Origin: Planctomycetota bacterium
GTDB lineage: Bacteria > Planctomycetota > MHYJ01 > JACPRB01
Length of the DNA stretch: 39,031 nt
Direction of reading: 5' to 3'
NCBI GenBank assembly: GCA_036505255.1
Contig: DASXTT010000113.1
Location: forward strand, 1-39,031
Shown: positions 10,315-39,031 of the stretch, piece by piece
Layout: each line of letters begins with the position of its first letter
Numbering within the stretch: position 1 is the first letter of the stretch
Notes under the pieces: model-generated
The model's input: only the letters and a program-made list of their open reading frames with translations
Databases searched by the model: none
Told to the model about the DNA's origin: nothing
Program-made: the position numbers and the translations under genes

Positions 10315-10317
10315 GGC

Positions 10318-16825: not shown

Positions 16826-16833
16826 GGGAGGGG

Positions 16834-16862: not shown

Positions 16863-16888
16863 CGGTCGGGCGCCGTCCCCGTTCCGGG

Positions 16889-16902: not shown

Positions 16903-17196
16903 TTTGACGGATTCCGATTCGCGGGTGGTACATTCGGGGCGATCCGTGCTTTCTCCCCCCGGGCCGTCTGGGACCGGGACGCGGCGGCGTTTGGAGCGGG
17001 AAGGAGGCGCCGCCGGGGAGGACGGATCGTGGCGGTCGCTGCGGGTGGGTGGCGGCTGCGGCTTCTGTTCCGATCTGCTATCGCGGACGGTTTGTGGGCC
17101 GTCTGCGGTGGCGCGCCTTCCCTTCAGGTTCCGTCCGGCCCTCCCGCGCCGCTGCTCCCGGCTCTGGCGCCACCTTACGGGGGGCGGTGCAGGATC

Positions 17197-19965: not shown

Positions 19966-20940
19966 TTATTTGTTTCCGCCCCCGCCGCCTCCCCCTTCCT
20001 TGCCTTCCTCCTTGGGCGGGGCTTCGGTCTCGGGGACGAGCCGGGTGCGGACGGTCTGGGTGCACGAGGAGTGTCCCTTTTCGGCGGCGTGGGGGCAGGC
20101 GGTCTTGTGTCCGGCCGGTCCGTCGAAGCGCTCCCACGTGACACGGCAGCGGTACGTGACGGTCGCATTGGCCTGCAGGTCCGCCCTGTTGAGTTTCCAC
20201 CATTTTTCCCAGTCGGCGGTGGTTTCCTCGTCGCCGCCCGTGATGGATTTCAGCGCGCGGTCGCAGGCGGCGCGCAACTTGGCTCCGCCCATTTCCCCGC
20301 CGCCGCCGCCGCCGAAGCGCCGCCCGCCGCCGCCGCCGAAGCCGCCGTTCTTGCGGCGCCAGTCGAGGAGGGGATCGACCGCGCCGGAGCTTCCGATGCG
20401 GCCGATGGCGTTGAAGGCCTCTTCGAGGACTTTCTTCCAGTCATCGTCGCTGGAGCGGTCAAGGAGCCTGACCAGGGGTGGCGAGGCCGATTCGTATCCC
20501 AGCTTCCCGAGGGCGCTGAAGATCGCCGCGAGGGCGACGGGGCGCTTCTCGTTGGGCGAGACGGCGGCGAGGAGGGAGTCGGCGGAAAGCGGGTGGTCCA
20601 GTTCCGCGATCTGGAGCGCCGCGTTGGCCGCGACGTCGGGGTTCGAGGCCCGGAGGTAGGAGACCATCGCCCGGATGACCTTCTCGTGGCGGACGCGGGA
20701 GATCTCCTTGAGGGCCGCGATCTGCGAGGACGGGAGGTCGGAAGCCATCGCCTTCTTGAACACGGCGAGAGCGGCTTCGGCCTCCTCGTCGGTGGCGGGG
20801 GCCGATTTCGCCGCCCCGGCGCCGGCCTTGGGATCCTGCTTGGGAGGTTCCTGCTTGGGAGGTTCCTGGAGCGCGGGGGCGCCGGCGGCCGCGAGAGACA
20901 GGACCGCGGGCAGAATGAGAGCGAGGAGGTAGCGCGACAT
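19966..20940 (-). CDS. Secreted HEAT-repeat protein with a Gly-rich linker and a Cys/His-containing C-terminal module
   Basis: Signal peptide MSRYLLALILPAVLSLAAAGA. Tandem QEPPK repeats. HEAT-like helices (AIFSALGKLGYESASPPLVRLLD, EEAFNAIGRIGSSGAVDPLLD). AAGGAG lies 9 nt upstream of the ATG. Confidence 0.7.
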   Translation of the reverse strand: MSRYLLALILPAVLSLAAAGAPALQEPPKQEPPKQDPKAGAGAAKSAPATDEEAEAALAVFKKAMASDLPSSQIAALKEISRVRHEKVIRAMVSYLRASNPDVAANAALQIAELDHPLSADSLLAAVSPNEKRPVALAAIFSALGKLGYESASPPLVRLLDRSSDDDWKKVLEEAFNAIGRIGSSGAVDPLLDWRRKNGGFGGGGGRRFGGGGGGEMGGAKLRAACDRALKSITGGDEETTADWEKWWKLNRADLQANATVTYRCRVTWERFDGPAGHKTACPHAAEKGHSSCTQTVRTRLVPETEAPPKEEGKEGGGGGGGNK

Positions 20941-23601: not shown

Positions 23602-25479
23602 ATGCGCGCCGCACGCGTCTTCGCCCTCCTGCTCCTCGTCGGGCGCCCCGCCTCCGCGCAGGAGGTTCTCGAGGAGGATTGGAGCGTCATGACGATCATG
23701 GGGTCGCGCGTCGGCCACACCCACTCGCTGCGGACGCGCCGCGCCGGGCCGGACGGCGCCGCGGAGATCGAGACGCTCGAACAATCGCGCCTGGCCGTGA
23801 AGCGGATGGGCGCCGGGATCGAGATCAGCCAGGATGTCCGCCACGTCGAGACGCCGGACGGCCGCCCGCTCCGGTTCAGTTCCCGCATGATCATGTCCTC
23901 GACCCCCACGCTCACCGAGGGCGTCATCGAGAACGGCCGGCTCAAGCTGAAGACGACCTCCGGGGAGGTCACCAAGGAAACCGAGGTCGACTGGGACCCC
24001 GAGTGCCTCCTTTCCGAGGGGTCGCGCCTGCTCATGATCAAGAAGGGCTTCGCCCCGGGGACGAAGTACCGCTTCAAGACGTTCAGCGCCGACTTCGGCA
24101 AAGTCGACGAGGTGGAGGTCGAGGTGCTGGAGCCCGAAACCAAGACCGTTCTCGGCAAGGAACGGCGCCTGAACCGGGTTCAGGTGAAGACCTCCCTTCA
24201 GAAAGGCGTGGTCATGACGACCTGGCTCGACGAGAACGGCTCCGCCTGGGCCATGGAGTCCCCTCTCATGGGGTTGAAGCTGGCCGTCGAGCGCGCCACG
24301 CGGGAGGAGGCGCTGAAGTCGGCGCCGGCGGAGCTCCCGGAGATTTTCTTCAAGACGATGCCGCGGTCCGACGCCGCCCTGCCCCGGCCGCGTGAAATCA
24401 CCGAGCTCCGCGCGCGCCTTGAACGGCCGGATGGCGGGCTCGCGGACTGGAAGCCGCCCGGGGGGACGCAGACCGTCGTCGCGCGCGACACGAAGTCGGT
24501 GACGTTGCGGATCGTGGCGCCGCCGCCGGGAACGCCGGCGGCCCAGCCGGTCGAGGACCATTCGGCCTTCCTCAAGTCCTCGCCCGCCGTCCAGTCGGAC
24601 GATCCGGAAATCGTCGAGCAGGCGCGCCGGATCGTCGGCGAAGAGAAGGACCCGTACCGGAGGGCGAGCGCCCTCGCGGGCTGGGTCAACAAGCACATCA
24701 ACAAGAAGAGCATGGACGTCGCGGCCGCGAGCGCGAAGGAGGTCCTGAAGGATCGGACCGGCGACTGTTCCGAGCACGCCGTCCTCCTGACGGCGCTCCT
24801 GCGGGCCGCCGGGATCCCCGCCAAGGTGTGTTCCGGCTACCTGTACGTGCGCGGGTCCTGGGGCGGCCACGCGTGGAGCAGCGCCTGGGTGGGACGCTGG
24901 GTCGACCTCGACGCGACCCTCGGCGACGGCGTCGCCGACGCCGCCCGCATCAAGTTCAGCGAGACGACGCTCGAGGACGTGGGAGCGACGATCGAAGGCA
25001 TGACGGGCGCCGGTTTCATGCACGGCGACATGAAGATCGAACTCCAGGAGTACGCCCTCGACGGAAAAACGCACAAGGTGGAGCCGCCGGCGAAACCGAC
25101 CGACGACACCTTCTCCGCGCCGCTGCTCGGCGTTTCCTTCGAGAAGCCCGCGGACTGGAAGTTCACGGCGCCCAAGGACCTTCCGCCCTTCATCCTCGCG
25201 GTCCTCGCGTCGCCCGACGGGAAGGCCGAGGTCCGGATCAGCTACATCGACCTTCCGTACGACCTGGCCCCGCTCGAAACCAGGAAGGCGGCGCGCAAGC
25301 TCGGCGGGGGTTCCAGCGGCGAGGCCGGCCGCCTCGCGGGCCTCGACACCTACGAGACCGATTCCAGGCTCTTCGTCCGGCTGAGTCCCGGTGAAATGCT
25401 GGTGATCGTCCTCAAGGACGAGGAGGCCGCGCGCCCGGCCCTCGAGCACATCAAGAAGACCCTGAAGATCAAACGATGA
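23602..25479 (+). CDS. Secreted transglutaminase-like (Cys-His-Asp) domain protein
   Basis: Signal peptide MRAARVFALLLLVGRPASAQE. GGAGG lies upstream of ATG 23602. Core: TGDCSEHAVLLTALLRAAGIPAKV..GHAWSSAWV..WVDLDAT. The stop overlaps the next start (ATGA). Confidence 0.8.
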   Translation: MRAARVFALLLLVGRPASAQEVLEEDWSVMTIMGSRVGHTHSLRTRRAGPDGAAEIETLEQSRLAVKRMGAGIEISQDVRHVETPDGRPLRFSSRMIMSSTPTLTEGVIENGRLKLKTTSGEVTKETEVDWDPECLLSEGSRLLMIKKGFAPGTKYRFKTFSADFGKVDEVEVEVLEPETKTVLGKERRLNRVQVKTSLQKGVVMTTWLDENGSAWAMESPLMGLKLAVERATREEALKSAPAELPEIFFKTMPRSDAALPRPREITELRARLERPDGGLADWKPPGGTQTVVARDTKSVTLRIVAPPPGTPAAQPVEDHSAFLKSSPAVQSDDPEIVEQARRIVGEEKDPYRRASALAGWVNKHINKKSMDVAAASAKEVLKDRTGDCSEHAVLLTALLRAAGIPAKVCSGYLYVRGSWGGHAWSSAWVGRWVDLDATLGDGVADAARIKFSETTLEDVGATIEGMTGAGFMHGDMKIELQEYALDGKTHKVEPPAKPTDDTFSAPLLGVSFEKPADWKFTAPKDLPPFILAVLASPDGKAEVRISYIDLPYDLAPLETRKAARKLGGGSSGEAGRLAGLDTYETDSRLFVRLSPGEMLVIVLKDEEAARPALEHIKKTLKIKR

Positions 25480-27008
25480 CGCGCCTGGTCGCCGTCGAGG
25501 GGCCCCTGCGGGGGCGGACCTTCGAGATCGACGACGGTTCCACCGTCGGCCGCGCCGCTTCGTGCGCCGTGCGGATCGACGGCCGCCACATCTCCCGGAT
25601 CCACGCGCGCTTCGTCCGGAGATCCGCCGGCTTCGCCATCCAGGACGCGGGCAGCCGCAACGGCATCTTCGTCAACGGCCAGCGCGTGGACGACAAGGAG
25701 CTGACGCGGGACGACGAGATCGAGATCGGCGAGCACCTCCTGGTGTTCGAACCGACGGCGGAGCGCGACTCCGCTTCGCGCTCCCGCCCCGGGGGCGCCA
25801 CCCTCGTGACGGAGACGCTCGACGATCCGTTCGGGGAACCTCTTGAACCGGCTCGGACGGCGGCGACCCTCGACGCGGTTCGCGCTTTCCACGGGGCCGA
25901 GCCGGAAGAGAGGGCGGTCCGGCTCCTCCTCGACCGGCTCGTGAACGATCTTAGGGCCCGCCGGGGATTCGTGATGCTCGCGGACGACCGGGGCCGGCTG
26001 CAGCCGGCGGCGCGCCGGGCCCCGCCGGGGGACGACGAGATCCATCTCTCCAACGTCCTCTTCCACAAGGTGTGGAAGGAGCGGAAGTCGGTCCTCGCCT
26101 CGGACACCGCGCGCGGGGGCCCCTCGGCGGGGCGGGCCGTGGAAATCCTGGCGACCCCTCTGGCCGCGGCCGGCGACATCCTGGGCTTTATCTACCTCGA
26201 CGCCCCGCCCCCGGCTTTCGGCCGGTCGGACCTGAGGTACGCGGCCTGGCTGGCCGCCTTCGGCGCGGGGGCCATCGCCACGGCGCGGCGGATGCGCCGG
26301 GCGCGCGAGGCGGTGGCCGCCTCCGCGGGCCGGCTCGCCGAGGGAGGCGAGCTGGTGACCTCCGGGGCGCTTGATGAAGCGGTCCGGCGGATCGAGCGCG
26401 CGGCGGCCGGCGACGCGCCGGTGCTTTTCACGGGTGAGGCGGGGACCGGGAAGGAGCGCGCGGCCCGGCGCCTTCACGCCCTGGGCCCGCGCGCCGTGGG
26501 TCCCTTCGTCTCCGTCCGGTGCGGAGCGGTATCCGCTTCCCTCGTCGAGGCTGCCCTGTTCGGGGCGGGAGGCCGCGTGGCGGAGGCGCGCGCCGGGACG
26601 CTGTTCGTGGACGGGATCGACGTCCTGCCGCCGCCCGTTCGGGAGCGGCTCCTCGTCCTGGTGGACGAGCCCTCGGTCGAGGAGGACGTGCGGGTCGTGG
26701 CCGGGTCGCCCAACGCGGCGGGGCTCCAGGGCCATTTCGGGGAGATCATCGACCTGCCCCCGCTGCGCGAGCGGCTCGGCGACCTGCCGGCGCTCCTGCA
26801 CCATTTCCTGAGGACCCTCGGAGGACGGAGCGTGGGTTCGCTCGAGGACCACGTCGACCCCGCCGTCCTGCGCCGGTTGGAATCTCAATCCTGGCCCGGC
26901 AACGTCCGGGAGCTGCGGCTCGCCGTGGAGCGGATGCTCGCGGCGGCGGGAAGCGGACGCATCGACCCCTCGCATCTTCCCCATGAGCCGGAAGGCTCCG
27001 CGTCCTGA
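25476..27008 (+). CDS. FHA / GAF-like / degenerate sigma54-activator-type AAA+ protein (no HTH)
   Basis: FHA: GRAASCAVRI..HISRIHARF..GSRNGIFVNG. AAA+: LFTGEAGTGKE (Walker A), TLFVDGID (Walker B with Gly in place of Glu), LFGAGGRVAEA where GAFTGA is expected, LRERLGDLPAL, WPGNVREL. It ends without a DNA-binding domain. Confidence 0.85.
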   Translation: MTRLVAVEGPLRGRTFEIDDGSTVGRAASCAVRIDGRHISRIHARFVRRSAGFAIQDAGSRNGIFVNGQRVDDKELTRDDEIEIGEHLLVFEPTAERDSASRSRPGGATLVTETLDDPFGEPLEPARTAATLDAVRAFHGAEPEERAVRLLLDRLVNDLRARRGFVMLADDRGRLQPAARRAPPGDDEIHLSNVLFHKVWKERKSVLASDTARGGPSAGRAVEILATPLAAAGDILGFIYLDAPPPAFGRSDLRYAAWLAAFGAGAIATARRMRRAREAVAASAGRLAEGGELVTSGALDEAVRRIERAAAGDAPVLFTGEAGTGKERAARRLHALGPRAVGPFVSVRCGAVSASLVEAALFGAGGRVAEARAGTLFVDGIDVLPPPVRERLLVLVDEPSVEEDVRVVAGSPNAAGLQGHFGEIIDLPPLRERLGDLPALLHHFLRTLGGRSVGSLEDHVDPAVLRRLESQSWPGNVRELRLAVERMLAAAGSGRIDPSHLPHEPEGSAS

Positions 27009-27065
27009 CCGGCGGCCCAACCTTCAGGGGGAGATTTCTCCCGCCGCGGGGTTCGTGTATAATCC

Positions 27066-29126
27066 ATGCGACCCTTGGATCGGTCCGGGGTCCTCTCTAT
27101 GACTTTCCCACCACCACCACCGCCGCCGGGTCCGGTGACGCAGGCCACCGGCTTGTCCGCGCCTCCGAGGGCGGACCTGGGCGGGATCCTCCTGCGCATG
27201 GGTGCCGTCACCCCGGCGCAGCTCGACGAGTGCCTGAAGCTGCAGCAGTCGATGGCCGGCCAGCCCCACGTCCCGCGGATCGGCGAGCTCCTCCTGCACA
27301 AGGGCTACGCCACCAAGGAGTCGATCCAGAAGGCCCTCGCGGAGCAGAACAAGAAGGTCCTCCTCTGCCCGCGCTGCAACATCATGGTGACGGTCAACCT
27401 GAGGTCGGACGCCATCGGGTACAAGTGCGGCAAGTGCGAGACGATCCTCATCGAGCCCTCGCCCGATCGGGAGGACGACAGCATCGACTCGATGATCATC
27501 GTCCACAGCAGCCTTCCGGTACCGCCCGAGGTGCAGGAGGCCCGCAAGGACCCGACGAAGCGTTTCGGCAAGTACATCCTGCTGGGCGAGATCGGCCGGG
27601 GCGGCATCGGCACCATTTACCGCGCGTGGGACGTCTACCTGAACCAGTTCGTGGCCCTCAAGCGGATCAAGCCGCCGCCCATGGGGGCGGGACGCGGCGT
27701 CCGCCACACGCGCATCGCGAGCCTCCTCAACGAGGCTCACAACGCGATCCGGCTGCGCCACCCGAACATCGTGTCCGTCTACGACATCGGCCGCATCGAG
27801 GACGAGTACTACATCAGCATGGAGTTCCTCGACGGGCGGACGATGCTCGACGAGGTGCAGGAGTGCAAGAAGGCGGGCAAGGTTTCGCCCTTCCACGAGA
27901 ACTCGCGGAAGTGGCTCGGCGTGCTCTACGAGACGGCCCAGGCGCTTCACTACGCCCACACGCGCCCGGCTCCATTGCTCCACTGCGACCTCAAGCCCGC
28001 CAACATCATGGTGACCAAGGACGGGCGGACCTGCATCCTCGACTTCGGCCTGGCGCGCCAGCTCGGCGAGATCAAGGCGGAGCAGGGGGTCGTCAGCGGC
28101 ACGCCTTCGTACATGGCCCCGGAACAGGCGGCCGGGCGCAATGACCTCCTCGACCCCCGCACCGACGTGTACGGCCTGGGCGCGATCCTGTACGAACTGC
28201 TCGCGGGCCAGCCTCCCTACATCGGGGAGGTGATGGACGTGCTGAAGCGGGTGCAGGAGGAGAGGCCGAAGCCGCCGAGCGAACTGGCGTGGGGCCGGGA
28301 CCCGGCGAGCGGTTCCTCGCGGCGGATGCTCCTCGTTCCGCCGGAGCTGGAGGCGCTCTGCATGCGGAGCCTCTCCAAGGAAGCGGCCAAGCGTCCGGCG
28401 AGCGCGCTGGTCTTCGCCGAGGAAATCGCGCACACGATCGGGGGCGGCAAGCGGTCGCTCCCCAAGCAGGCGGCGAGCTCCACGCTTCACACGGAATTGC
28501 AGTCAATCGCCGAATCCTTCGGCGCCCGCAAGGGCCGGCTGGTCCCGATCCTGCTCATGGCGTTCATGATGATCCTGGCGGCCTCGGCCACGGTGATCTT
28601 CTACTCGAAGTTCCGCGGCACCTACGAATCCGACGCCCCCGAACAGACCGCCCTGAAGTACCTCGCGGAGTTCCGCCCGGAGGAGGTCGACAAGCTGGGT
28701 CCCGATGTCCTGCGGCGTCCGGAGCTCAGCGAGGTCGTGCGGCGCCGGGACCAGATGGCGTCATTCAAGCAGCAACTTATGGACTACATCGAGGCGAAGA
28801 ATCCCTTCATCTGGCGTCTGACGATCGGATCCCAGTCGGCGAGAAACGTCACGCTGCAGCGGGCCCGGGCGGACAGCGTCACCTTCGTCATCGGCCAGCA
28901 GCTGCCGGACAACGCTCCGTGGTCGCGCTTCGGTCCGACCGGCGTGCACGAGATGGCGAAGGAGTGGAAGCTCCTCAATTCCGCCGGGAACAAGTACGCC
29001 ATGGCCCTCTACGCCCTGTCGGCCAACACCAAGGGGCTGGCCCGCGACCTGTTCAACAGCCTCCAGGGAACCCAGTTCGCCGGGCAGGCGGCCGAGTACC
29101 TCCGGCAGCTCGACCTGGAGAAATGA
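27066..29126 (+). CDS. Hanks-type Ser/Thr protein kinase with an N-terminal T2SSE_N/MshEN-like module and zinc ribbon, one TM helix and a C-terminal extracytoplasmic domain
   Basis: DLGGILLRMGAVTPAQLDECLKLQ and RIGELLLHKGYATKESIQKALAEQ. CPRC..CGKC. Kinase motifs GEIGRGGIGTIY, VALKRIK, HCDLKPANIMV, DFGLAR, GTPSYMAPEQ. TM helix LVPILLMAFMMILAASATVIFY. The alternative start is ATG 27099. Confidence 0.88.
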   Translation: MRPLDRSGVLSMTFPPPPPPPGPVTQATGLSAPPRADLGGILLRMGAVTPAQLDECLKLQQSMAGQPHVPRIGELLLHKGYATKESIQKALAEQNKKVLLCPRCNIMVTVNLRSDAIGYKCGKCETILIEPSPDREDDSIDSMIIVHSSLPVPPEVQEARKDPTKRFGKYILLGEIGRGGIGTIYRAWDVYLNQFVALKRIKPPPMGAGRGVRHTRIASLLNEAHNAIRLRHPNIVSVYDIGRIEDEYYISMEFLDGRTMLDEVQECKKAGKVSPFHENSRKWLGVLYETAQALHYAHTRPAPLLHCDLKPANIMVTKDGRTCILDFGLARQLGEIKAEQGVVSGTPSYMAPEQAAGRNDLLDPRTDVYGLGAILYELLAGQPPYIGEVMDVLKRVQEERPKPPSELAWGRDPASGSSRRMLLVPPELEALCMRSLSKEAAKRPASALVFAEEIAHTIGGGKRSLPKQAASSTLHTELQSIAESFGARKGRLVPILLMAFMMILAASATVIFYSKFRGTYESDAPEQTALKYLAEFRPEEVDKLGPDVLRRPELSEVVRRRDQMASFKQQLMDYIEAKNPFIWRLTIGSQSARNVTLQRARADSVTFVIGQQLPDNAPWSRFGPTGVHEMAKEWKLLNSAGNKYAMALYALSANTKGLARDLFNSLQGTQFAGQAAEYLRQLDLEK

Positions 29127-29186
29127 CGATCTCCGGGCCGGGAAAACCGCGGCGGGGTTGATAGGCCATCGTATAATCCGGCTTTC

Positions 29187-32100
29187 ATGGGCGATCCCTC
29201 CCTCCAGGACGCGGCGACCGGGCTGGGCAATCGGCGCGGCCTGCTCTCCGCCCTCCGCGACCGCATGCCGGCCCAGACGGGCGCCCTGATCCTGATCGAT
29301 CTCGACGGCTTTCGAGCCTCCGTCGAAGGCCTTGACCGCAAACAGATCGACGCCCTGCTCATGGACATCGCCGGGCGGCTCCGCGAGGGGGCCGGGGCGG
29401 AGGCCCTCCTTTTCCGGTACGGCGGCGACGCCTTCGGTCTGCTGGTTCCGGAGGCGGATCGCGACAAGGGCGCCGCGGCGGCCGAGAATCTCCGCTCCTC
29501 CGTCGACCGCAAGCCCTTCATGTCCGGAACGCGCTACATCCCGATGACGGCCAGCGCGGCGGTCGCGACCTACCCCATGGATGGAAAGTCCCCGGCGGGA
29601 GTGATCGAGGCGGCCGAGAGGGCCCTGCTGGTCGCCAAGCAGCTGGGGCGGAACCGCATCGCGGTGGCGGGCCGGCTCGACCCCGCCGCGCTCGCCGAGA
29701 TCGGCATCTTCCGCGGGCTCCCCTGCCCGATTCACATCGGGCGCGTCGCGGAGCAATCCCGCCTGCGCCAGCTCGCCACGGACGTCCGCAACGTCGGGCC
29801 GGCCGTCGCGGTCGTCACGGGCGGAGCCGGCGTCGGCAAGTCGCGCCTCCTCCAGGAGCTGGGGGTGTGGGCGCGGGCGGAGAAATACATCGTCCTCGCC
29901 GCGACCTGCCAGGAGTCGCGCGCGACGGCCCCCTATGCGACCCTCGCCGAGCAGATCGAAACGCACATGGCCTCGGACCGCGACAAGGTCCTGCAGGCCA
30001 TGCAGCGCATCAGCCCGGCCCACCGCGCGGCGCTCGCCGTGGTCCTCCGCGACCTGCCGGTGGAGTGGACGACCGAAGCGACCGAGGCGGGCGTGGTCGG
30101 GAAGTTGATCTTCGAGGCCTTCGGGGCCCTGTTCGAGGAGCTGTCCCGGATCGGCCCGCTGCTCGTCCTGGCCGACGAGGTGGAGTTCGGGGACGCCGCC
30201 ACCTTCGAGGTGTACCGCGCCGCGATCAGCCGGAAGCTTCCCATCCTCGTCGTCGTCGGCACCGATCGACCGGCCCCCGAGATGGAGCTGATGCCCTCGG
30301 GGTCCTTCTGGCGGGACTTCGGACCCGGGGCGTCGCGGATCAACCTCCAGGCGCTCCCGGCCGAGGACCTGCGGCAGATGGTCCGCGGCATCCTGCCGGA
30401 CGCCGAGATCAGCAGCGAGTCCCTGGCGCGGCTCGTCGTGGCCGCCCAGGGGAATCCGCTCTACATCGAGGAAACGATCCGGTCGCTCCTCCTGCGGGGA
30501 CGCCTCAAGCTGGCCGGGGGCCGGTGGTCGCTCGCCGAGCTGACGGCCGCCGACCTGTCGCGCGATCTCGCGGGCGCCATGCGCGCCGTCTCGGAGGCGC
30601 TGCCCTCCGGGGCCAATTCCCTCCTGACCCGCGCCGCGGTGATCGGCACGCGCGTCGACCCCGAGCTGCTGCAGGAGGTGCTCGGCGAGGGGGACATGGA
30701 GATGCTGGACCTCATCGACGAGGTCCGGCGGTCCCGGCTCCTTCTGCCCTCGGAGTCGGGCCAGGATCTCCTCTCCTTCCCGGCGGCCCACGCGCGTCGG
30801 GCCCGGCTGCAGACCTCGGACGCGACGGAGCGCCGCGAGATTCACGGCCGCGTCGGCGTGGTGCAGGAGGCGCGTCACGGCGGCGACGTCGACCACATCG
30901 CGGACGAGATCGCGTTCCACTACGGCCGCGCGGGGCAGGAGGCCAAGGCCAAGCAGTTCGACCAGATCGCGCAGAAGCGCGCGGCGCTCATCCAGCCGCC
31001 CCAGAAGCCCGGCGTCCGCCGGCCCACGCTTCCCCAGATCACGACGGCCCTGGCGGCCCCGGCGACCGAGCAGGCCCTGGCCCTCATGCGCCACTTCATG
31101 GCGGCCGTGAAGATCGGGAGGCTCTACCCGCAGTGGAGCCAGGTCGGGACCACGTTCCTCGCCCAGCTGCGGGGTTCGCTGGAGGCGCTCCTCACGGGAG
31201 GGCCCGGCCTCACCTTCGCCGTGACCACGAACGGCCCCGCCATCAACGGGGTCGTGACCGACGCCCCGGTGGCCGCCGACTTCGCCCGGCTCATCGAGGA
31301 GCGCCTCATCGAATCGATCACCATCCTGAACACCTTCGAATTCCCGCGGATCGAGACGCTCGTCCGCACCTTCGCGGAGCCCTTCGACCGGTCGCGGGTG
31401 TCGCCCGATTACTGGGACCGCTTCCTAGCCCGCGAGGCGATGGGGGCGATCGACATCGTCCAGAAGGCCTACCAGGCCCGAGAAACCGTGCGGCGGACGC
31501 GCGTCCAGCACGGGGACACGGCCGTGCCGCCCGAGGACATCGGCGCCGTGCGCGACGCGCTCCGCTTCGTGAAGGCCGCGGTGGACAACCTGAAGCGCTA
31601 CCCGCCGGGCCATTCGCTGGTGGAGGAGACGACCGGCCAGAGCGTCCGCACTTTCCTCGAGCTCCTTCGCAAGGTGCCGGCCGTGACCATCGGGACCGCG
31701 GAAGGGGAGCTCGTCCTCAACGGACAGCCCGCGGACCGGAAGTTCTTCTCCGAGGCGGGGGCCTTCTTCACCAAGGAGATCGACCAGCGCAAGATCCAGA
31801 GCATCTCGGTGTGGCGCGGCCTGATGGAGGACGAAGTCCGCGCCCTCATCAGCTACTTTTCGCTGACGGCCGAGGAGGCCCTTCAGCCGGGGACGGGCGA
31901 GCGCCTGCTCACCCAGTTCACCCACGTCGCGTTCGGCTCCCGCGCCTACGAGCGGGCGACGGAGGAGGCCGGGGCGCCGCTCCACCCGCCGCCGAAGGCG
32001 GTGCGATCGGAACTCCGGGCCCGGGAGCACCTCTCCAAATCGGACGAGGAGTTCCTCACCCCCGACCTCGAGCGCCAGTTCCCCCTCCTCGTCGAGGCGC

Positions 32101-33248
32101 TGGCCTACGGGGCGGGGCGGACCCTGGCGGAGCAGCTCGTGGACCGGCTCGGGACCCACTTCCACCACCCGAGCCTCTCCCACCGCACGCGGGCCTTCAA
32201 CCTGCTGACGCGGTCGATCGCCTTCGCCTCCCCCGGAACGCGCAAGCTGGCCGTGATGCGGTCCGCCGCGTCGCTCAAGATGCGCCTGTCGGAGGATACG
32301 GAGCCGCTGCACGTGCGGGCCGCGGTGAACCTCCTGCCCGTCTGGATCCCGGCCGCCGCCGCGTCGGGCTGCCTCGGCGAGCTGGCGGAGATCGCGGGTC
32401 GGACCCTGCGGAGGCGGGCCGACTCCCCGGCGACGCCGCCGGAGGTGGCGGCCGTCTGCGAATCGGCCCTCCAGCTCATCCCGCAGTCGCAGGCCTACGA
32501 CGCGATCTGCGCCGCGGTCCGGAAGCCCGCCGAGGACGATCGCAACGCGGCCATCACGATCCTGCTTTCGGTCGGCGGCCCGACCGTGGAGAAGCTCGTC
32601 GAGATCCTGGCCGAGGAGTCGGACCTGCAGGTCCGGCGCGCGATCTCGCTCTCGCTCGCGCCGGCCTCGGAGCGGCTCTCGCCCGAGATCATCCGGCTTC
32701 TCCCGCCCGACGGCGAGCCGCAGCGGCTCGCCCGCGTGCTCATGGTGATCGAGCCGCTTCTGACGGGGACGGTGGCGGCCCACATCGCCACGCTGGCCGA
32801 GAAGTCGGGCCCGGACATCCGGGGAGTCATCCTCAAATCCGCCGAGCAGTGGCCCCGATCGGTGGCTTCGGGAGTCGTCCGCCGGCTCCTGGCCAGCCCG
32901 GCCCGGGATCTCCGCGACGCGGGGATCGAGGCGGCCACGCGGATGAAACTCGAGGCGGTCAAGGCGGAGATCGGCCGCATCCTCGAGGGGGCGCAGGACG
33001 AGCGGCTCATGGTCCTTTGCGCGGGATTCTTCCGGGAGGTGCCCAATCCCGCCGTCGTCGCGCTGCTGACGAAGATCGCCCAGACCCGTCCCAAGCTCTT
33101 CGGCCTCGTGAAAGGCTACGCGGCCGAGACCCGCGCGGCCGCCGTCCTGGCCCTGGCCGCCCAGGGGACCCGCCAGGCGGAGGAGGCCGTGACCGCGGCG
33201 GTGACCGATCCGAAGGTCAAGGCCCTCACGGAATCGAGGAAGAAGTAG
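29187..33248 (+). CDS. Degenerate GGDEF domain / STAND-type (AAA_16-like) NTPase / internally duplicated module / HEAT-repeat protein (1353 aa)
   Basis: GGDEF-like N-terminus with RYGGDAF (nt 29421-29435). Walker A GGAGVGKS (29820-29843). Walker B LLVLADEVEF. A helical region follows. Two related ~100-aa modules lie at about 31080-31385 and 31545-31865. HEAT-like C-terminus. Confidence 0.85.
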   Translation: MGDPSLQDAATGLGNRRGLLSALRDRMPAQTGALILIDLDGFRASVEGLDRKQIDALLMDIAGRLREGAGAEALLFRYGGDAFGLLVPEADRDKGAAAAENLRSSVDRKPFMSGTRYIPMTASAAVATYPMDGKSPAGVIEAAERALLVAKQLGRNRIAVAGRLDPAALAEIGIFRGLPCPIHIGRVAEQSRLRQLATDVRNVGPAVAVVTGGAGVGKSRLLQELGVWARAEKYIVLAATCQESRATAPYATLAEQIETHMASDRDKVLQAMQRISPAHRAALAVVLRDLPVEWTTEATEAGVVGKLIFEAFGALFEELSRIGPLLVLADEVEFGDAATFEVYRAAISRKLPILVVVGTDRPAPEMELMPSGSFWRDFGPGASRINLQALPAEDLRQMVRGILPDAEISSESLARLVVAAQGNPLYIEETIRSLLLRGRLKLAGGRWSLAELTAADLSRDLAGAMRAVSEALPSGANSLLTRAAVIGTRVDPELLQEVLGEGDMEMLDLIDEVRRSRLLLPSESGQDLLSFPAAHARRARLQTSDATERREIHGRVGVVQEARHGGDVDHIADEIAFHYGRAGQEAKAKQFDQIAQKRAALIQPPQKPGVRRPTLPQITTALAAPATEQALALMRHFMAAVKIGRLYPQWSQVGTTFLAQLRGSLEALLTGGPGLTFAVTTNGPAINGVVTDAPVAADFARLIEERLIESITILNTFEFPRIETLVRTFAEPFDRSRVSPDYWDRFLAREAMGAIDIVQKAYQARETVRRTRVQHGDTAVPPEDIGAVRDALRFVKAAVDNLKRYPPGHSLVEETTGQSVRTFLELLRKVPAVTIGTAEGELVLNGQPADRKFFSEAGAFFTKEIDQRKIQSISVWRGLMEDEVRALISYFSLTAEEALQPGTGERLLTQFTHVAFGSRAYERATEEAGAPLHPPPKAVRSELRAREHLSKSDEEFLTPDLERQFPLLVEALAYGAGRTLAEQLVDRLGTHFHHPSLSHRTRAFNLLTRSIAFASPGTRKLAVMRSAASLKMRLSEDTEPLHVRAAVNLLPVWIPAAAASGCLGELAEIAGRTLRRRADSPATPPEVAAVCESALQLIPQSQAYDAICAAVRKPAEDDRNAAITILLSVGGPTVEKLVEILAEESDLQVRRAISLSLAPASERLSPEIIRLLPPDGEPQRLARVLMVIEPLLTGTVAAHIATLAEKSGPDIRGVILKSAEQWPRSVASGVVRRLLASPARDLRDAGIEAATRMKLEAVKAEIGRILEGAQDERLMVLCAGFFREVPNPAVVALLTKIAQTRPKLFGLVKGYAAETRAAAVLALAAQGTRQAEEAVTAAVTDPKVKALTESRKK

Positions 33249-33394
33249 GGAAGCCCCCGCCGGGCGGACGCCGTCCCTCCAGGATCGCGCCGTCCGGGCC
33301 GCGTTTTACATATTTCGAAAGTCATGAATTAGTAAATTTGTAAATGGGCGGGGCCCCGGGAAACGGGTGCGGATCCAGGAGGGCCCCCGCGCGA

Positions 33395-36352
33395 TCAGGG
33401 CTTGCCGTTCACGCGCTCCCGCGCCGACCGGATGGCGGGCTCGAGGCGGCTCCCGTATGAGGAGTCGATGCTGACGGCTTTCTCGAAATCGCGAAGGGCA
33501 TCGGCGTACCGGGCGAGCCGCAGCAGGATCTGTCCGCGATGCTCATAGACGGCGGCCGCTTCCGAGGCCAGCTGGACCGCCGCCTCCGCGGCCTCGAGGG
33601 CCTCGGTCCCCCGGTCCAGCGCTTCCAGCGCCCGGGCCCGCAGGAGGAGCGGCCACGCATCCCGGGGCTCCAGCTCGGAGGCCCGCTTGAAGAGCGGGAG
33701 CGCCTCTTCGGGCTCGCCCTTCCGGAGGCGCGCGAGACCTCCTCCGGCGGCCGCCAGGGCCGAGGAGGGCTCCAGGCCCGCCGCCGCGGCGAACGCCTCG
33801 CCGGCGCCGGCGAACCCGCCGCGCTCGATGAGAATCCGGCCCTTCACGAGCAGGGGGGCCGAGCGGTCGGGCGCGAGAGTCCGCGCCTCCTCCAGATCCG
33901 TGTCCGCCCCGGCCGCGTCGCCCCGCCTATGGCGGACCCACGCCCGGGCCAGTTTCGGTCCGGGATCGGCGGGCGCGTAGCGAATGGCGACGCCGAGGTC
34001 GGCGTCGGCCCCCGCCAGATCCTCGGCACCCAGGCGCGCCCAGCCGCGCAGCCGCCACGCGTCGGTGTCGGCGGGGAATTTCTCCAGGTACCGGTCGAGG
34101 ACGGCCGCGGCCTCCGCCGGTTTCCCGTCGAGCCATCGCAGGGCCGCCTGGGCGAAATCGTCCCGCGCCGGGTCGCGGGCGACCAGGGACCAGACGCTCG
34201 TGAGATCGACGTGCGCGCGTTCCCGTTCCTCGGCATGCGCCGGTGACGACGGAATCCCGTCAGGCCTGAAGTCGACGAGGAGGCCTTCCATGACCCGGGC
34301 CAGCCGGACTCTCGCCCGATCGCAGAGGGCCGCCGTGAGATCCGGGGCCCGGGCCAGCGCGGCGGTGAGGTCCTCCTCCGCCGCCGGTCCCGCTCCGCGG
34401 AGCATGCGCGCCCGCGCCCTCAGGTGCAGCGCTTCTTCGTGGTTGGGCACAATCTTCAGCGCCTCGTCGAGGATTTTCTCGACGGCCGCGACCCGCTCGA
34501 GGATTCCCGCACCGTCGAGCCCCACCTGCCTCGGGATCATCTCGAGCATCGTCCGCGCCGACCCAACCTGGGGGGCCACCTGGCGCCGCTTCTCGTCCAG
34601 GGCGAGCTCGCGGATGAATTCATCCCTCTGCGAAGCGATGCGCTGCACGACCCACTGGTGGAACTGGGTCATTCCGGGGTCTTCGGGGCGAAGCCGGAGG
34701 GCGGCTTGCGCGTGGAGCAGCGCCTCCTGATATTTCCGCTCGTCGAAGCTGCGCTGGGCCTCCCCCCTGAGCCGCGAGAATTCCCGCGAGTCCCGCGACA
34801 TGAGATACAGGACCAGGCTCCCGGACACCGCGAAGAGGGCCAGGGAGACCGCGGCGAGGGCGGTCGACTTGTTCTTGCGGATTCGCCGGAAGGCCCGGAT
34901 GGGCCACGGCTGGGGCCGCGCCAGGATCGGCTCGCCGTCGAGGTAGCGGCGCAGGTCGTCCGCGAACTCTCCCGCGGTCGCGTACCGGAGCGCGGGGTCC
35001 TTGTCGATCGCCTTCAGGCAGATCGTCTGAAGGTCGGGATGGACGCGCTCGTTGAAGACGCGCGGGGGCGGGGGCTCCTCGGTCAGGATCTTGTGGAAGA
35101 TTTCCACGCTGTTCTGGGCGACGTGAGGCGTGCGCCCGCAGAGGATCTCGTAGAGGATCACGCCGAGCGAATAGAGGTCGCTGCGCGGGCCGACGAGCCG
35201 CGTCTCCCCGCGGATCTGCTCCGGCGCCATGTAGTAGGGGGTCCCGAGGAAGCTCCCGTCGCGCGTCAGCATGGCGCGCTTGGGGTCGTCGAGGAACTTG
35301 GCGAGGCCGAAGTCCATGACGTGCGGCTCGCCGTTGAGGTCGATCATGATGTTCGCCGGCTTCAGGTCCCTGTGGACGATGCCCTGCTCGTGCGCGTGGT
35401 GGACGGCGCGGACCACCTTCTCGAGGCGCGCGATCATGTCGCGCACCTTGAATCCTCGGGCGAGGTGGGTCGTGAGGGGGTCGCCCTCGATGTAGTCCAT
35501 CGCGAGGTAGTGCATCCCCGCTTCCTGGCCCGCGTCGTGGATCGCCACGATGTTCGGGTGGCGGAGGCGCGCCTCGGCCTGCGCCTCGCGCTTGAAACGG
35601 TCGAGCACTTCGGCGGAGGCCATCTCGGTCTCGCGCAGGATTTTCAGGGCGAAGACCGTGTTCAGGTCCCGGTGGGCCGCCTTGTAGACGATGCCCATCC
35701 CGCCGCGGCCCAGTTCCTCGAGGATGGCGTACCGGCCGAACTGCGTTCCCACCTCCGCGGCGCGTTTCGCCGTCGCGGCCCCCATCGGGCCGGCCGGAGC
35801 CCCCTCGGGCTCCACCTGCGGGATCGGCACCACCGTCCCGCACCGCCGGCACGCGAACTTGGCCCCGCGATCTTTCTCGTCGAATCGGTAGAAGGTGTCG
35901 CAACCGGGACAGCGCACGATGGAGCGCCGCTGGACTTTGAGGATCTCGAGGAACTGTCCCGTCTGGAGCCAGCCCTTCCGGAGCAGGATCTGTCCGAGCA
36001 TCGCCGGGGAGCCGGAGCGCGAGAGGAGCGCCTGCTCCTCGAGCGCCTGGTTCACGTTTTCGGCCGCGACGAAGCCGAGGTCGAGCGCGATCTGCCCGAA
36101 GAGCCCGCCCCGGGCCGGGTCGGCGGCCACGATCCGGACCTGGCGGGTCTGGATGTCGAGGATCGCGGCGAGCCGCTTCGGGGTGATGTATCCCTTGTCG
36201 ATGAGGATCTCGCCCAGCTTGCGCGGCGCGGTCGCCTGTTTCTGGAGCGAGACGCACTCCTCGACCTGCTGGGCCGAAACGAAGCCCTCGCGGACGGCCA
36301 GGGAGCCGAGGAGCCGGTCGTCGCCTCCGCGCGTGGCAGCGGGATCAGACAC
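33395..36352 (-). CDS. Hanks-type Ser/Thr kinase with two N-terminal MshEN-like modules, zinc ribbon, TM helix and a long TPR region
   Basis: Start set at GTG 36352, with GGAGG 6 nt upstream. Four 24-aa repeats ending in Q. CPGC..CRRC. Kinase motifs LGRGGMGIVY, FALKIL, HRDLKPANIMI, DFGLAK, GTPYYMAPEQ. TM helix ALAAVSLALFAVSGSLVLYL. TPR-like repeats run to the C-terminus. Confidence 0.88.
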   Translation of the reverse strand: MSDPAATRGGDDRLLGSLAVREGFVSAQQVEECVSLQKQATAPRKLGEILIDKGYITPKRLAAILDIQTRQVRIVAADPARGGLFGQIALDLGFVAAENVNQALEEQALLSRSGSPAMLGQILLRKGWLQTGQFLEILKVQRRSIVRCPGCDTFYRFDEKDRGAKFACRRCGTVVPIPQVEPEGAPAGPMGAATAKRAAEVGTQFGRYAILEELGRGGMGIVYKAAHRDLNTVFALKILRETEMASAEVLDRFKREAQAEARLRHPNIVAIHDAGQEAGMHYLAMDYIEGDPLTTHLARGFKVRDMIARLEKVVRAVHHAHEQGIVHRDLKPANIMIDLNGEPHVMDFGLAKFLDDPKRAMLTRDGSFLGTPYYMAPEQIRGETRLVGPRSDLYSLGVILYEILCGRTPHVAQNSVEIFHKILTEEPPPPRVFNERVHPDLQTICLKAIDKDPALRYATAGEFADDLRRYLDGEPILARPQPWPIRAFRRIRKNKSTALAAVSLALFAVSGSLVLYLMSRDSREFSRLRGEAQRSFDERKYQEALLHAQAALRLRPEDPGMTQFHQWVVQRIASQRDEFIRELALDEKRRQVAPQVGSARTMLEMIPRQVGLDGAGILERVAAVEKILDEALKIVPNHEEALHLRARARMLRGAGPAAEEDLTAALARAPDLTAALCDRARVRLARVMEGLLVDFRPDGIPSSPAHAEERERAHVDLTSVWSLVARDPARDDFAQAALRWLDGKPAEAAAVLDRYLEKFPADTDAWRLRGWARLGAEDLAGADADLGVAIRYAPADPGPKLARAWVRHRRGDAAGADTDLEEARTLAPDRSAPLLVKGRILIERGGFAGAGEAFAAAAGLEPSSALAAAGGGLARLRKGEPEEALPLFKRASELEPRDAWPLLLRARALEALDRGTEALEAAEAAVQLASEAAAVYEHRGQILLRLARYADALRDFEKAVSIDSSYGSRLEPAIRSARERVNGKP

Positions 36353-36488
36353 GGCGAACCTCCGATGTCGATGGCGGGCGGGGATCGGCAGGCGGGCCGT
36401 TCCCCCCTGCGGCCAAAGTATACCTGATGGGCCCGCGGCCGGGTGGCGCGCTCCCCTTTTCGCCCCTCGTGGGGTATAACGGAGGCCC

Positions 36489-39031
36489 ATGGCGGACGCC
36501 CCCGAAAAGGATCTCGCCAAAGACGGACTGCTCGCGATCGCGCCGCGCGACCCGACCGGCCGCCCCACCCTCGGCGGAATCCCTCTCTACAAGAAACTCG
36601 GCCAGGGGGGGATGGGCGCGGTCTACCTGGGAAAACACCCGCGGCTCGGCGTCGAGGTCGCCGTCAAGATCCTCCCTTTTCACCTCGCCGACCAGGACCC
36701 CAACGCCATCGAGTATTTCATGCGGGAGGCGAACGTCGCCGCGCGGCTGAACCACCCGAGCCTGGTGCGCATCTTCGACGTCAACGTCGACGGCGATCCC
36801 AAGGCGGGCTCGGCGATCTGGTACCTGGTCATGGAGTTCGTCTCGGGCCTGACCGGGGGAAAGCTCATCCGCGAGCGCATGAAAGGCGGGAAGGGGCCCC
36901 TGTCGGAAGCGGACGCGCTCGATCTCCTGCTCACCGTGAGCGACGGCCTCGCCGCCGCCCACGAGGAGAATTTCGTCCACCGCGACATCAAGCCTGAGAA
37001 CATCATCATCCCCCTCTCCCCCGAGGGCGAGCCGCAGTTCCGGAAAGCGAAGCTCATGGACCTCGGCCTCGCCAAGCTCCTGTCCGAGGAACGGTCCATC
37101 GGGTTGACGGGGACAAACGTGGCCATGGGGACGCCGGGCTACATGGCGCCCGAACAGGCGGAAAACGCGAAGGGGGCGGGCCCGCCCTCGGACGTCTTCG
37201 CGATGGGCGCGACGCTCTACACGCTCCTGACGGGATCGGCGCCGTTCACGGGGACCACCGTCCTTCACGTCCTGAAGAAGACGAGCGAAGAGCCCCATCC
37301 GCCCCTGCGGAACGTCAACCCCGCCGTGAGCCGGCCGACGGAGGTCCTCGTCGACACCTGCCTCGCCAAGCGACCCGAGGCGCGGTACGCGAGCGCGGGC
37401 GTGCTTCGCGAGGCGCTGAAGGCGTGCCGCCAATCCCTCGGCGGCGAGATTTCCACCGACCGGACGCTCGCCTCGCTCCAGAATCTCGCCTCGGTCGCCT
37501 CCACCGACCCGACGGTCCGGGCGCCCTCCCCGTCGATCCTCCCTTCGGCCTCCCCCCGGACCGGCGTGACGGCGAAGACGCCCGAGCCCGAGGTGGCGGC
37601 CCCGTCCGTACCGGCGCCGGCTCCCGCGGCACCCTCCTCGCCGGGTCCGGCGCGGAGATCGAAGGCGCCGCTTCTCGTCGCCGCGGCGGCGGTCGCCCTC
37701 CTGGCCGCGGCCGGAATCGGAGCCTTCATCGTTTTCCGGCCCGGCGGGAGAGGATCCTCCGAGAAGACCGACCCCGGGAAAAAAGAAATCCCCCCCGACG
37801 CGGCCGGCGCCGAATTCGCCCAGGCCATGCGTGACGCGGAAGGCGCCCTCAACGATGAGGACTACGCGAAGGCGGAAGCGCTGTACAAGGAGGCGCGTCA
37901 CCTCAGGCCCCAGTCCTCGGAGGCCGAGGAGGGAGAGCGCCGGGCCCGCCAGCTCACGGAGCAGGCTTCGTCGGTCGCCACCGCCGTGGGCGACGCCGAA
38001 GCGCTCGCCGTGTCGAAGGATTACGCTTCCGCATGGCAGAAACTCCGGACGGCCATCGACCGCCACCCCGACGCGATCACCCTCCGAACCGCGTCGGCGA
38101 AGCTGGCCCTCGACCACGGGACGTACGCCTGGCTCGGCCTCGCCCTCAACGACGCCAACGTCGCCCTCCGGCTGGCGGGCCCGAAGCGCAAGCCCGCGGC
38201 GACCCAGCTGCGCGACAAGCTGGAGGCGAAGAAGAAATCGGCGGAAGCGGCGGGCGGAGTGCTTCCCCAGATCCAGCTCGCGATCGACCGCGGCGATTGG
38301 GACGCCGCGGAAAAGCTGCTCGACCAGGTCGAACCCGCGGAGCGAGGCGCATTCACGCGCGCGATCGAGCAGGGCCGGAAGTGGCAGGCGGCCATGGCGC
38401 GGGGAAAAAAGGCGGAGGAGTCGCGCCAGTGGCCCGAGGCGCTCGCGGCGTACCACGAGGCGCTCTTGTTGAAGTCCGACCCCGCGACGGACGAGGCCAT
38501 CCGGCGCGCCGAACAGGAAGTCAAGTCGCAGTACGGAGCGGAGTGCGACGGGGCCCTGCACGAGGCCAAGGGCGGTCGCTTCGACGAGGCGCGGCGCCAC
38601 CTGGCGGCCGCCGAACAGCTGACGCCCTCCGGCCTGCGCCACAACAAGCTCAAGGACGAGATCCAGTTCCTGGAGCACCTCGCGGAGGCGCGCAAGCTCC
38701 GCCGGGACGGGAAGAACGCCGACGCCCTCGCGGCCGCGCGGAGGGCGCTCGCGCTCCGCGGCGATTCGCCCGAGGCCCGGACGCTCGTCGAGGAGCTTGG
38801 ACGCGAAGGCCCGCTCGCCGGGGCGAAGGCGGCGCTGGCCGGCGGCGACCGCGCGACGGCCGCGCGGCTCGCGCGCGCCGCGGCCGCGGACAACCCCGCG
38901 GCCCCCGAGCTGAAAGACCTCGAGCGGGAGCTGTGGCCCGACCTGTTCGCTGAAAAGGCCAAGTCCCCGGCGGCCGGGCCCGTTGACGACCTGGCCGCCG
39001 CCTCCGACGGGCGAATCGTCGGCACGGGGGG
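36489..39031 (+). CDS. Third Hanks-type Ser/Thr kinase with TM helix and TPR-like region; 3'-truncated by the window end and absent from the supplied ORF track
   Basis: I translated this frame codon by codon and found no stop from ATG 36489 to nt 39031. Motifs: LGQGGMGAVYLG, VAVKIL, HRDIKPENIII, DLGLAK, GTPGYMAPEQ. TM helix LLVAAAAVALLAAAGIGAFIVF. Repeated helical Ala/Glu/Arg-rich pairs follow. GGAGG precedes the ATG. Confidence 0.85.
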   Translation, partial: MADAPEKDLAKDGLLAIAPRDPTGRPTLGGIPLYKKLGQGGMGAVYLGKHPRLGVEVAVKILPFHLADQDPNAIEYFMREANVAARLNHPSLVRIFDVNVDGDPKAGSAIWYLVMEFVSGLTGGKLIRERMKGGKGPLSEADALDLLLTVSDGLAAAHEENFVHRDIKPENIIIPLSPEGEPQFRKAKLMDLGLAKLLSEERSIGLTGTNVAMGTPGYMAPEQAENAKGAGPPSDVFAMGATLYTLLTGSAPFTGTTVLHVLKKTSEEPHPPLRNVNPAVSRPTEVLVDTCLAKRPEARYASAGVLREALKACRQSLGGEISTDRTLASLQNLASVASTDPTVRAPSPSILPSASPRTGVTAKTPEPEVAAPSVPAPAPAAPSSPGPARRSKAPLLVAAAAVALLAAAGIGAFIVFRPGGRGSSEKTDPGKKEIPPDAAGAEFAQAMRDAEGALNDEDYAKAEALYKEARHLRPQSSEAEEGERRARQLTEQASSVATAVGDAEALAVSKDYASAWQKLRTAIDRHPDAITLRTASAKLALDHGTYAWLGLALNDANVALRLAGPKRKPAATQLRDKLEAKKKSAEAAGGVLPQIQLAIDRGDWDAAEKLLDQVEPAERGAFTRAIEQGRKWQAAMARGKKAEESRQWPEALAAYHEALLLKSDPATDEAIRRAEQEVKSQYGAECDGALHEAKGGRFDEARRHLAAAEQLTPSGLRHNKLKDEIQFLEHLAEARKLRRDGKNADALAAARRALALRGDSPEARTLVEELGREGPLAGAKAALAGGDRATAARLARAAAADNPAAPELKDLERELWPDLFAEKAKSPAAGPVDDLAAASDGRIVGTG

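Follow-up and report, generated by a model that had tools for sequence, protein, structure and literature searches.

The stretch of DNA considered here, referred to as the window, comprises 39,031 nucleotides (nt), positions 1-39,031 of contig DASXTT010000113.1 of an uncultured Planctomycetota bacterium. Its right-hand part (23602-39031) carries six consecutive large genes, here called A to F, which an earlier note had read as one integrated signalling system. On balance, this region is best explained as a group of signalling genes, in a Planctomycetota genome rich in kinases, that contains one conserved two-gene module, formed by a Hanks-type Ser/Thr kinase (kinase 1, gene C) and a GGDEF-STAND protein (gene D), together with lineage-specific accessories. 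C and D are probably co-transcribed, A and B are plausible lineage-specific add-ons with operon-typical spacing, and kinases 2 and 3 (genes E and F) are, as judged from their distribution, ordinary neighbours outside the conserved unit. The gene set, called in a window of 66-73% G+C from third-position GC analysis and a listing of open reading frames (ORFs), is unambiguous:

23602-25479, + strand: A, transglutaminase-like protein, 625 amino acids (aa)
25476-27008, + strand: B, FHA-GAF-pseudo-AAA+ protein, 510 aa
27066-29126, + strand: C, kinase 1, 686 aa, first member of the conserved core pair
29187-33248, + strand: D, GGDEF-STAND protein, 1353 aa, second member of the conserved core pair
33395-36352, - strand: E, kinase 2, 985 aa counted from GTG 36352
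36489-39031, + strand: F, kinase 3, more than 847 aa, cut by the window end

The start of B overlaps the stop of A (ATGA), and gaps of 57 nt and 60 nt separate B from C and C from D, respectively, as the earlier note had it. E is convergent on D across a spacer of 146 nt, while F diverges from E across 136 nt. The coordinates first given for the six genes hold apart from the start of E, which the sequence around 36200-36680 places at GTG 36352, preceded by GGAGG, instead of at 36568; in the same stretch, F starts at ATG 36489, also with GGAGG in front. The domain calls made from the letters alone (FHA, three Hanks kinases, two of them with putative nucleotide-binding N-termini, a non-catalytic GGDEF on a STAND scaffold, and a transglutaminase) agree with Pfam, NCBIfam and PDB matches. 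A scan for promoters and terminators was uninformative, with results at or below shuffled expectation.

The evidence for a two-gene module lies in the conservation of gene order. All window proteins were mapped onto each of 46 fetched loci. A look-up by the exact sequence of D matched no recorded contig. About 42 full-length orthologue clusters of D exist at 48-96% identity, those with a name being Planctomycetota, and distant homologues (21-31% identity) are found on Acidobacteriota, Gemmatimonadota and metagenome contigs. Close relatives, in which D is at least 77% identical, keep A-B-C-D and also E-F where the contig reaches far enough. The same relatives keep unrelated upstream genes as well, namely those for ThiF, a 180-aa ORF, the HEAT protein and the SpoIIE phosphatase, so that synteny among close relatives is uninformative on function. 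The distant set therefore carries the argument, and comprises 12 loci with D at 48-59% identity and at least 3.3 kb of upstream sequence. In 10 of these 12, the gene that immediately precedes D on its own strand encodes a full-length kinase-1 orthologue (43-50% identity), with gaps of 0-114 nt between the two genes. A kinase-1 orthologue is likewise found upstream of D in every close locus with enough upstream sequence, the overall identity ranging from 43 to 95%, and at least 16 further D clusters sit on contigs of the same size as the contig of a kinase-1 cluster. In locus L039, the gene upstream of D encodes a related soluble kinase with MshE-like motifs and a zinc ribbon; this protein (8477-9886, 469 aa) has neither a transmembrane segment nor an ectodomain, and its gene is in frame with D (10001-14005), from which it is separated by a stop codon and 114 nt.

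The surroundings of the pair change across the same loci. At least five different flanking contexts are seen among the distant loci (the ORF clustering behind this count was crude, with shadow ORFs and merged C+D read-through, and served for flank comparison only). Ten distant loci extend at least 7 kb beyond D on its downstream side, and none of them has E or F; E is present only in loci where D is at least 78% identical, and F only in close relatives. Judged from gene order, only the adjacency of C and D is demonstrably non-random. Conservation of gene order beyond this genome, the absence of which the earlier note had named as refuting its proposal, is thus clear for the kinase-1/D pair and lacking for the six-gene block. 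What that note described as Ser/Thr phosphorylation coupled to a STAND switch survives as the conserved C-D unit and not as an integrated six-gene system, and a 15-kb "signalling island" is narrowed to a specific, testable two-gene hypothesis.

Several observations weigh against this reading. Locus L003 keeps A-B-D and has no kinase on its 15.5-kb contig, so the pairing of C and D is not obligatory. All comparisons come from metagenome-assembled genomes or metagenome contigs of one phylum-level clade, so vertical inheritance contributes to the adjacency signal, and kinases are frequent in these genomes, with about eight extra kinase domains in roughly 298 kb of related loci. A-B-C-D may also be the ancestral arrangement, lost in other branches, in which case A and B would be more than accessories. 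Finally, co-transcription, phosphotransfer and binding between C and D are inferred. The restriction to one Planctomycetota clade and the kinase-less L003 would fit an alternative in which C and D are functionally unlinked and their adjacency is merely inherited synteny. This is improbable, however, since the adjacency persists although both flanks have changed independently at least five times, and does so at 48-59% protein identity, a distance at which no other neighbour is retained.

D, the larger member of the pair, has the predicted layout of a STAND NTPase, in which a P-loop NOD is flanked by an N-terminal effector domain and a C-terminal repeat region. Its parts are as follows:

aa 6-157: GGDEF domain (E 6e-21), degenerate, with RYGGDAF at 77-83
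aa 184-600: AAA_16 NOD (E 4e-12), with Walker A GGAGVGKS at 212-219 and Walker B LLVLADE at 325-331
aa 624-924 (624-769 and 782-924): tandem duplicated alpha/beta modules, window 31056-31958, + strand
aa 940-1353: HEAT solenoid, matching alphaRep in a PDB search

The NOD residues G215, G217, K218 and D330 are invariant in 17 homologues. The GGDEF domain has decayed throughout the clade. The substrate motif DxDxFKxINDxxGHxxGD is degraded to IDLDGFRASVEGLDRKQID, the counterpart of DxDxFKxINDxxGH reads IDLDGFRASVEGLDR, and no RxxD I-site is present five residues upstream of the GGDEF motif, where the sequence is GAGAEALLFRYGGDAF. All 42 clade clusters with a readable motif have D[AS]F or SVF, the clade pattern being RY[GA]xD[AS]F, the fourth-position Glu being gone, and INDxxGH is lost clade-wide, with the Asn and the Gly-His replaced throughout. 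The combination of RYGGDAF, a missing I-site and a lost INDxxGH leaves the D clade without diguanylate-cyclase chemistry, and guanine binding has probably been lost as well.

The D clade belongs beside a wider family of proteins some 1400 aa long, known from Acidobacteriota, Gemmatimonadota and other groups, which have the full-length GGDEF-AAA_16-module-HEAT architecture and the tandem module in common with D and are annotated merely as "diguanylate cyclase". The two differ at the catalytic motifs and in their gene neighbourhoods. Members of the wider family almost always keep RYAGDEF and an intact DxDxFKxINDxxGH, and are probably active cyclases; no conserved kinase neighbour was found for these distant homologues with intact motifs. 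In the D clade, by contrast, the motifs are lost and a kinase is adjacent. Two metagenome contigs each carry a pair of D-like paralogues, 30-31% identical to D, on the same strand and a few kb apart (L033, 2481-5300 and 9615-13634; L034, 3966-6827 and 10001-14011), and no kinase was detected near them.

The C-terminal half of D was modelled with AlphaFold2 (aa 590-1353, 42 homologues), which yields two alpha/beta modules followed by a HEAT/ARM solenoid at a mean predicted local distance difference test (pLDDT) score of 87.6. The solenoid resembles PP2A-A, importins and alphaRep proteins, and Foldseek searches with the C-terminal 764 aa return generic HEAT/ARM solenoids only. The two module copies are 27% identical to each other, and the tandem module modelled alone reaches a pLDDT of 90.3. 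It has no Pfam model and no significant fold match in the PDB (best Foldseek E 0.19, TM-score about 0.1). A GAF-like identity was considered and dropped: the top Foldseek matches are GAF arrays of phytochromes and phosphodiesterases (PDE), none of them significant. In an exhaustive phmmer search, 142 clusters (50% identity) contain the region of the module; most of them are proteins near 1400 aa that share this layout, and some are shorter ones that start with the module; HEAT repeats lie downstream of the module in 9 of 9 members with Pfam matches (10 sampled). The tandem module may be an undescribed sensor domain, and the analysis flags a confidently folded tandem domain without a Pfam or PDB relative in at least 142 protein clusters.

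Kinase 1 is a single-pass membrane protein with a cytoplasmic N-terminal module in front of its Hanks kinase domain:

aa 37-60 and 71-94: MshE-like 24-residue motifs I and II
aa 101-124: Cys4 zinc ribbon
aa 172-445: Hanks kinase domain, with VALK at 196, HCD at 306 and DFG at 326
aa 492-513: transmembrane segment, then an extracytoplasmic C-terminal domain of about 170 aa

The kinase domains of C, E and F match Pkinase at E values of 7e-39, 4e-52 and 8e-44, respectively, and the catalytic motifs (Gly-rich loop, VAIK-type Lys, HxD catalytic loop, DFG, APE) are intact in each. Every one of these proteins crosses the membrane once. The DFG motif reads DFG or DLG, while the catalytic loop is HRD in kinases 2 and 3 and HCD, a non-RD form, in kinase 1 and all its orthologues. 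These orthologues keep the entire architecture, including the HCD, the MshE-like motifs, the zinc ribbon and the ectodomain. The ectodomain of kinase 1 has no Pfam match and no PDB sequence match.

The MshE-like motifs of kinases 1 and 2 resemble the tandem RLGxxLLxxGLLxxxxLxxxLxxQ type found in MshE and in the GSPII domains of PilF (PDB 5HTL, 8PDK; PMC5013675, PMC12002112). The published consensus consists of two consecutive 24-residue motifs, RLGxx[LVI][LVI]xxG[LVI][LVI]xxxxLxxxLxxQ, 5 residues apart (PMC12002112, PMC5013675). Against the NCBIfam model NF053729 (MshE-related c-di-GMP motif, cut-off 38 bits), kinase 2 scores 60.4 bits over positions 2-52 of 53 and kinase 1 passes marginally, with 40.9 bits, via motif II only. 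Both kinases match PilF GSPII and MshE in the PDB (E 1e-6 to 6e-4), and neither matches Pfam MshEN/T2SSE_N (PF05157) even at E<=5, the only other matches being weak ones to DUF4388/PATAN and zinc-ribbon models. Unlike MshE and PilF, the kinases contain the four-helix motif part only, followed by a zinc ribbon, and have no MshEN alpha/beta subdomain or secretion ATPase. Kinase 1 departs further, with no Arg in its motif I and a longer linker, and binding of cyclic di-GMP (c-di-GMP) by either kinase is putative.

A GGDEF gene next to a kinase with MshE-related motifs invites the proposal of a c-di-GMP circuit: D would use its GGDEF domain to produce or bind c-di-GMP or GTP, and kinase 1 would detect this nucleotide with its MshE-like module and so be a c-di-GMP-gated Ser/Thr kinase. 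Motif II of kinase 1 and the motifs of kinase 2 agree with the published 24-residue consensus (PMC12002112, PMC5013675), and fusions of MshEN to Ser/Thr kinases have been noted previously, though bioinformatically only (PMC5013675). Nevertheless, the probability of such a circuit is low. The D clade is without the fourth-position Glu, the INDxxGH Asn and the RxxD I-site, which makes synthesis or canonical binding unlikely. On the kinase side, Asp replaces the guanine-stacking Arg of motif I in every orthologue of kinase 1, and the linker between its motifs is 10-13 residues long and not 5. In addition, the motif is no guarantee of binding, as the near-consensus GSPII-A of PilF fails to bind c-di-GMP (PMC12002112). 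The kinases are natural candidates for asking whether MshE-type motifs gate Ser/Thr kinases.

For the kinase-1/D module, a different path is proposed. Kinase 1 would sense an envelope signal through its ectodomain of about 170 aa, and its cytoplasmic MshE-like four-helix and zinc-ribbon module might add a nucleotide input. The signal would then be relayed by phosphorylation or docking of the cytoplasmic STAND protein D, which would control NTP-dependent switching or oligomerisation of D. In such a scheme, the dead GGDEF domain would serve as an interaction or output surface that makes no c-di-GMP, and the tandem alpha/beta modules and HEAT solenoid as sensor or scaffold.

The closest known design is that of TIGR03903, the "TOMM system kinase/cyclase fusion protein", which has in common with C-D a Hanks kinase, a palm-fold cyclase-type domain, and an AAA_16 NOD with a C-terminal repeat sensor. 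The match of D to TIGR03903 is confined to the NOD region (aa 184-600 against model positions 484-901, E 6.5e-33), and its 113.7 bits against a cut-off of 705.75 mean that D is not a member and that the relationship is one of analogy. The NOD of D is nearest to TIGR03903, and kinase-AAA_16 fusions (P0051, P0053, P0060) occur among D's weaker homologues, which together provide an indirect argument, of the Rosetta-stone type, for a link between kinase and STAND functions. We also take C-D to be comparable to kinase-AAA_16-TPR proteins of the Mycobacterium tuberculosis PknK type. In contrast to both TIGR03903 and PknK, kinase 1 stands alone as a membrane protein that carries an ectodomain and an MshE-like module of its own, and the sensor of D is a HEAT solenoid with two uncharacterised alpha/beta modules rather than a TPR array. 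The cyclase-type domain of D also differs from that of TIGR03903 in being a degenerate GGDEF and not a class III cyclase. By analogy, the C-D pair looks like a split, membrane-anchored variant of the kinase/cyclase/AAA_16 fusion design.

Signalling in Planctomycetota is little studied experimentally. In a literature search, neither the kinase-1/GGDEF-STAND pair nor the tandem module was found described, nor was the decay of GGDEF across the clade. The view that this is not a described system is therefore upheld in so far as no literature or defence-model match was found, and qualified in that its logic resembles the known kinase-cyclase-AAA_16 fusions. Fusions of cyclase-type domains with AAA_16 STAND proteins, and FHA enhancer-binding proteins beside kinases, are already known, and current concepts are not overturned. 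As a tentative possibility, rather less than an even prospect, a Planctomycetota-specific module may have arisen from an ancestrally c-di-GMP-making STAND family that lost catalysis and came under a dedicated Hanks kinase with an MshE-type module, with sensing by the hitherto undescribed tandem alpha/beta domain and the HEAT solenoid, and with some lineages recruiting a decayed FHA enhancer-binding protein and a secreted transglutaminase. If true, this would be a case of second-messenger output rewired into phospho-signalling via pseudo-enzyme domains.

The transglutaminase-like and FHA proteins of the window lineage are A and B. A, a secreted protein, matches Transglut_core (PF01841, E 6e-22) and PDB 3ISR (E 3e-7), begins with a signal-peptide-like N-terminus (MRAARVFALLLLVGRPASA), and has an intact triad of C389 in GDCSEHA, H423 in GGHAWS and D436 in VDLDAT. 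B contains FHA (E 1e-16), GAF, Sigma54_activat and AAA_lid_14 domains in Pfam. The phosphothreonine (pThr)-binding residues of its FHA domain are intact (GR 25-26, SRxH 40-43, NG 62-63), and G25, R26, S40, H43, N62 and G63 are at least 90% conserved in the alignment. The AAA+ domain is another matter. Alignment with orthologues and canonical enhancer-binding proteins reveals that a 12-residue deletion has removed the GAFTGA loop, that Walker B reads LFVDGI in place of LFLDE, with loss of the Glu, and that further deletions lie in the second half of the AAA+ core. HTH_8 (PF02954) is absent, the protein stopping after AAA_lid_14. B is thus a decayed enhancer-binding protein, and cannot act as a sigma54 activator because the GAFTGA loop, the Walker B Glu and HTH_8 are lost.

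In Myxococcus xanthus, FHA-domain sigma54 enhancer-binding proteins are coupled to Ser/Thr kinases. B has in common with these proteins the N-terminal FHA domain, the sigma54-type AAA+ domain and a gene position beside Hanks kinases, and differs from them in its missing GAFTGA loop, Walker B Glu and HTH_8. Its relatives in Planctomycetota (P0131-P0156) form a graded decay series of FHA-GAF-sigma54 enhancer-binding proteins, running from full-length forms with GAFTGA and HTH, through forms that have lost GAFTGA and kept HTH and forms that have lost HTH too (the window form), to forms in which AAA+ is deleted. The orthologue P0131 (locus L006, 49% identical) retains GAFTGA, the Walker B Glu and HTH_8, whereas P0132, P0133 and P0135 retain HTH_8 only; the relatives without AAA+ (331-384 aa) have FHA and GAF only, mostly with HTH_8. 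Clade-wide conversion to a pseudo-enzyme is described in two cases, the GGDEF domain in D and the AAA+ domain of sigma54 type in B, and in D it coincides with a conserved kinase partner.

Whether A and B belong to the unit decides a further alternative, in which A-B-C-D is an ancestral operon and a functional unit serving one pathway, with kinases 2 and 3 unrelated. The spacing of the four genes is tight (the ATGA overlap, 57 nt and 60 nt), and A-B flank D in three deep branches, namely the window clade, L003 and L006; in a neighbour-joining tree of D, which is crude, L006 is basal and L003 groups with the window lineage. With its FHA domain intact, B could plausibly recognise pThr generated by a kinase; if that kinase were kinase 1, the link would be lineage-specific and optional. 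This alternative is nonetheless rather unlikely. A-B adjoin D only in the window lineage, L003 and L006, and both genes are absent within 10 kb upstream of D in 8 of the 9 distant loci with at least 8 kb of upstream sequence, L006 being the exception (L003, with only about 4 kb upstream, is outside this count). The quartet of transglutaminase, FHA-AAA, MshEN-kinase and GGDEF-STAND genes, whose conservation as a block the earlier note wished to see checked, is conserved in part only. B orthologues also occur in L045 and L046, in unrelated contexts from which the transglutaminase, kinase 1 and D are all missing. L006 has an additional small kinase between A and B, and in L044 (9171-11134) the gene for a 277-aa soluble Hanks kinase overlaps by 4 nt the start of that for a short FHA-GAF-HTH_8 paralogue of B; the inserted and the coupled kinase suggest that B-type proteins have kinase partners of their own. 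Another kinase and an FHA-guanylate-cyclase protein lie nearby in L044.

The two remaining kinases of the region are built as follows:

Kinase 2 (E): four MshE-like motifs at aa 14-141, zinc ribbon at aa 148-171, RD Hanks domain, transmembrane segment at aa 498-518, extracytoplasmic TPR array
Kinase 3 (F): RD Hanks domain, transmembrane segment at aa 395-416, TPR-like C-terminal region, no MshE-like module

The contiguity of the six genes, and the unusual order of MshE-like motifs, zinc ribbon, kinase and transmembrane segment that kinases 1 and 2 have in common, could be taken to favour the integrated envelope-to-STAND system of the earlier note, perhaps with the upstream PP2C phosphatase as a further part. 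Such a system is quite improbable, given that E and F are missing from every distant locus with enough downstream sequence and are kept only alongside the genes for ThiF, the 180-aa ORF, the HEAT protein and the SpoIIE phosphatase. The background density of kinases is high, and the phosphatase is of the SpoIIE type with no STAS domain found.

STAND NTPases and kinases also occur in defence systems, and the kinase domains match the PD-T4-6 and MADS6 kinase models, so an anti-phage or conflict system of STAND/Avs or kinase-based type was weighed. It is scarcely credible here. PADLOC-DB 2.0 gives no match for D or A, its kinase matches are generic, and B matches only the AAA part of RtcR-like models. 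C and D are inherited vertically, their identities tracking each other across the clade, and the surroundings are of housekeeping type without mobile-element context; Pfam reveals no nuclease or other toxic effector domain in the genes. The vWA-MoxR-VMAP conflict systems, in connection with which GGDEF, FHA and transglutaminase domains are mentioned (PMC7159879), were also considered and rejected, as Pfam detected none of their defining vWA, MoxR and VMAP domains in the six genes.

Upstream of the region, the window holds the following genes:

18394-19908, - strand: SpoIIE-type PP2C phosphatase, with a 300-aa N-terminal region without assignment
19966-20940, - strand: HEAT-repeat protein, adjoining the SpoIIE phosphatase
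16822-17736, + strand: sigma-70 family factor, about 0.65 kb from the phosphatase gene, with a DUF1425 gene between
2519-3226, - strand: PPK2
8034-10226, + strand: PPK1
13031-13915, + strand: CHAD-domain protein
13912-15489, + strand: Ppx/GppA

The phosphatase was rightly recognised as a PP2C in the earlier note, and the STAS domain ascribed to it there does not stand, as none is found by Pfam even at E<=5, nor is any STAS partner found in the window. The phosphatase and the HEAT protein are syntenic in close relatives only. Four polyphosphate-related genes (PPK2, PPK1, CHAD and Ppx/GppA) lie within 13 kb upstream of the flagged region, the CHAD-domain and Ppx/GppA genes overlapping by 4 nt, and this cluster looks like a polyphosphate metabolism neighbourhood. 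An Rfam scan of the window returned two tRNAs and nothing else. At the left window edge, a gene for a tyrosine recombinase (Phage_integrase, E 1e-34; 36-776, + strand) lies 32 nt from tRNA-Gly(GCC) (809-884, - strand), an arrangement typical of integration sites; an integrated element, if there is one, would be outside the window.

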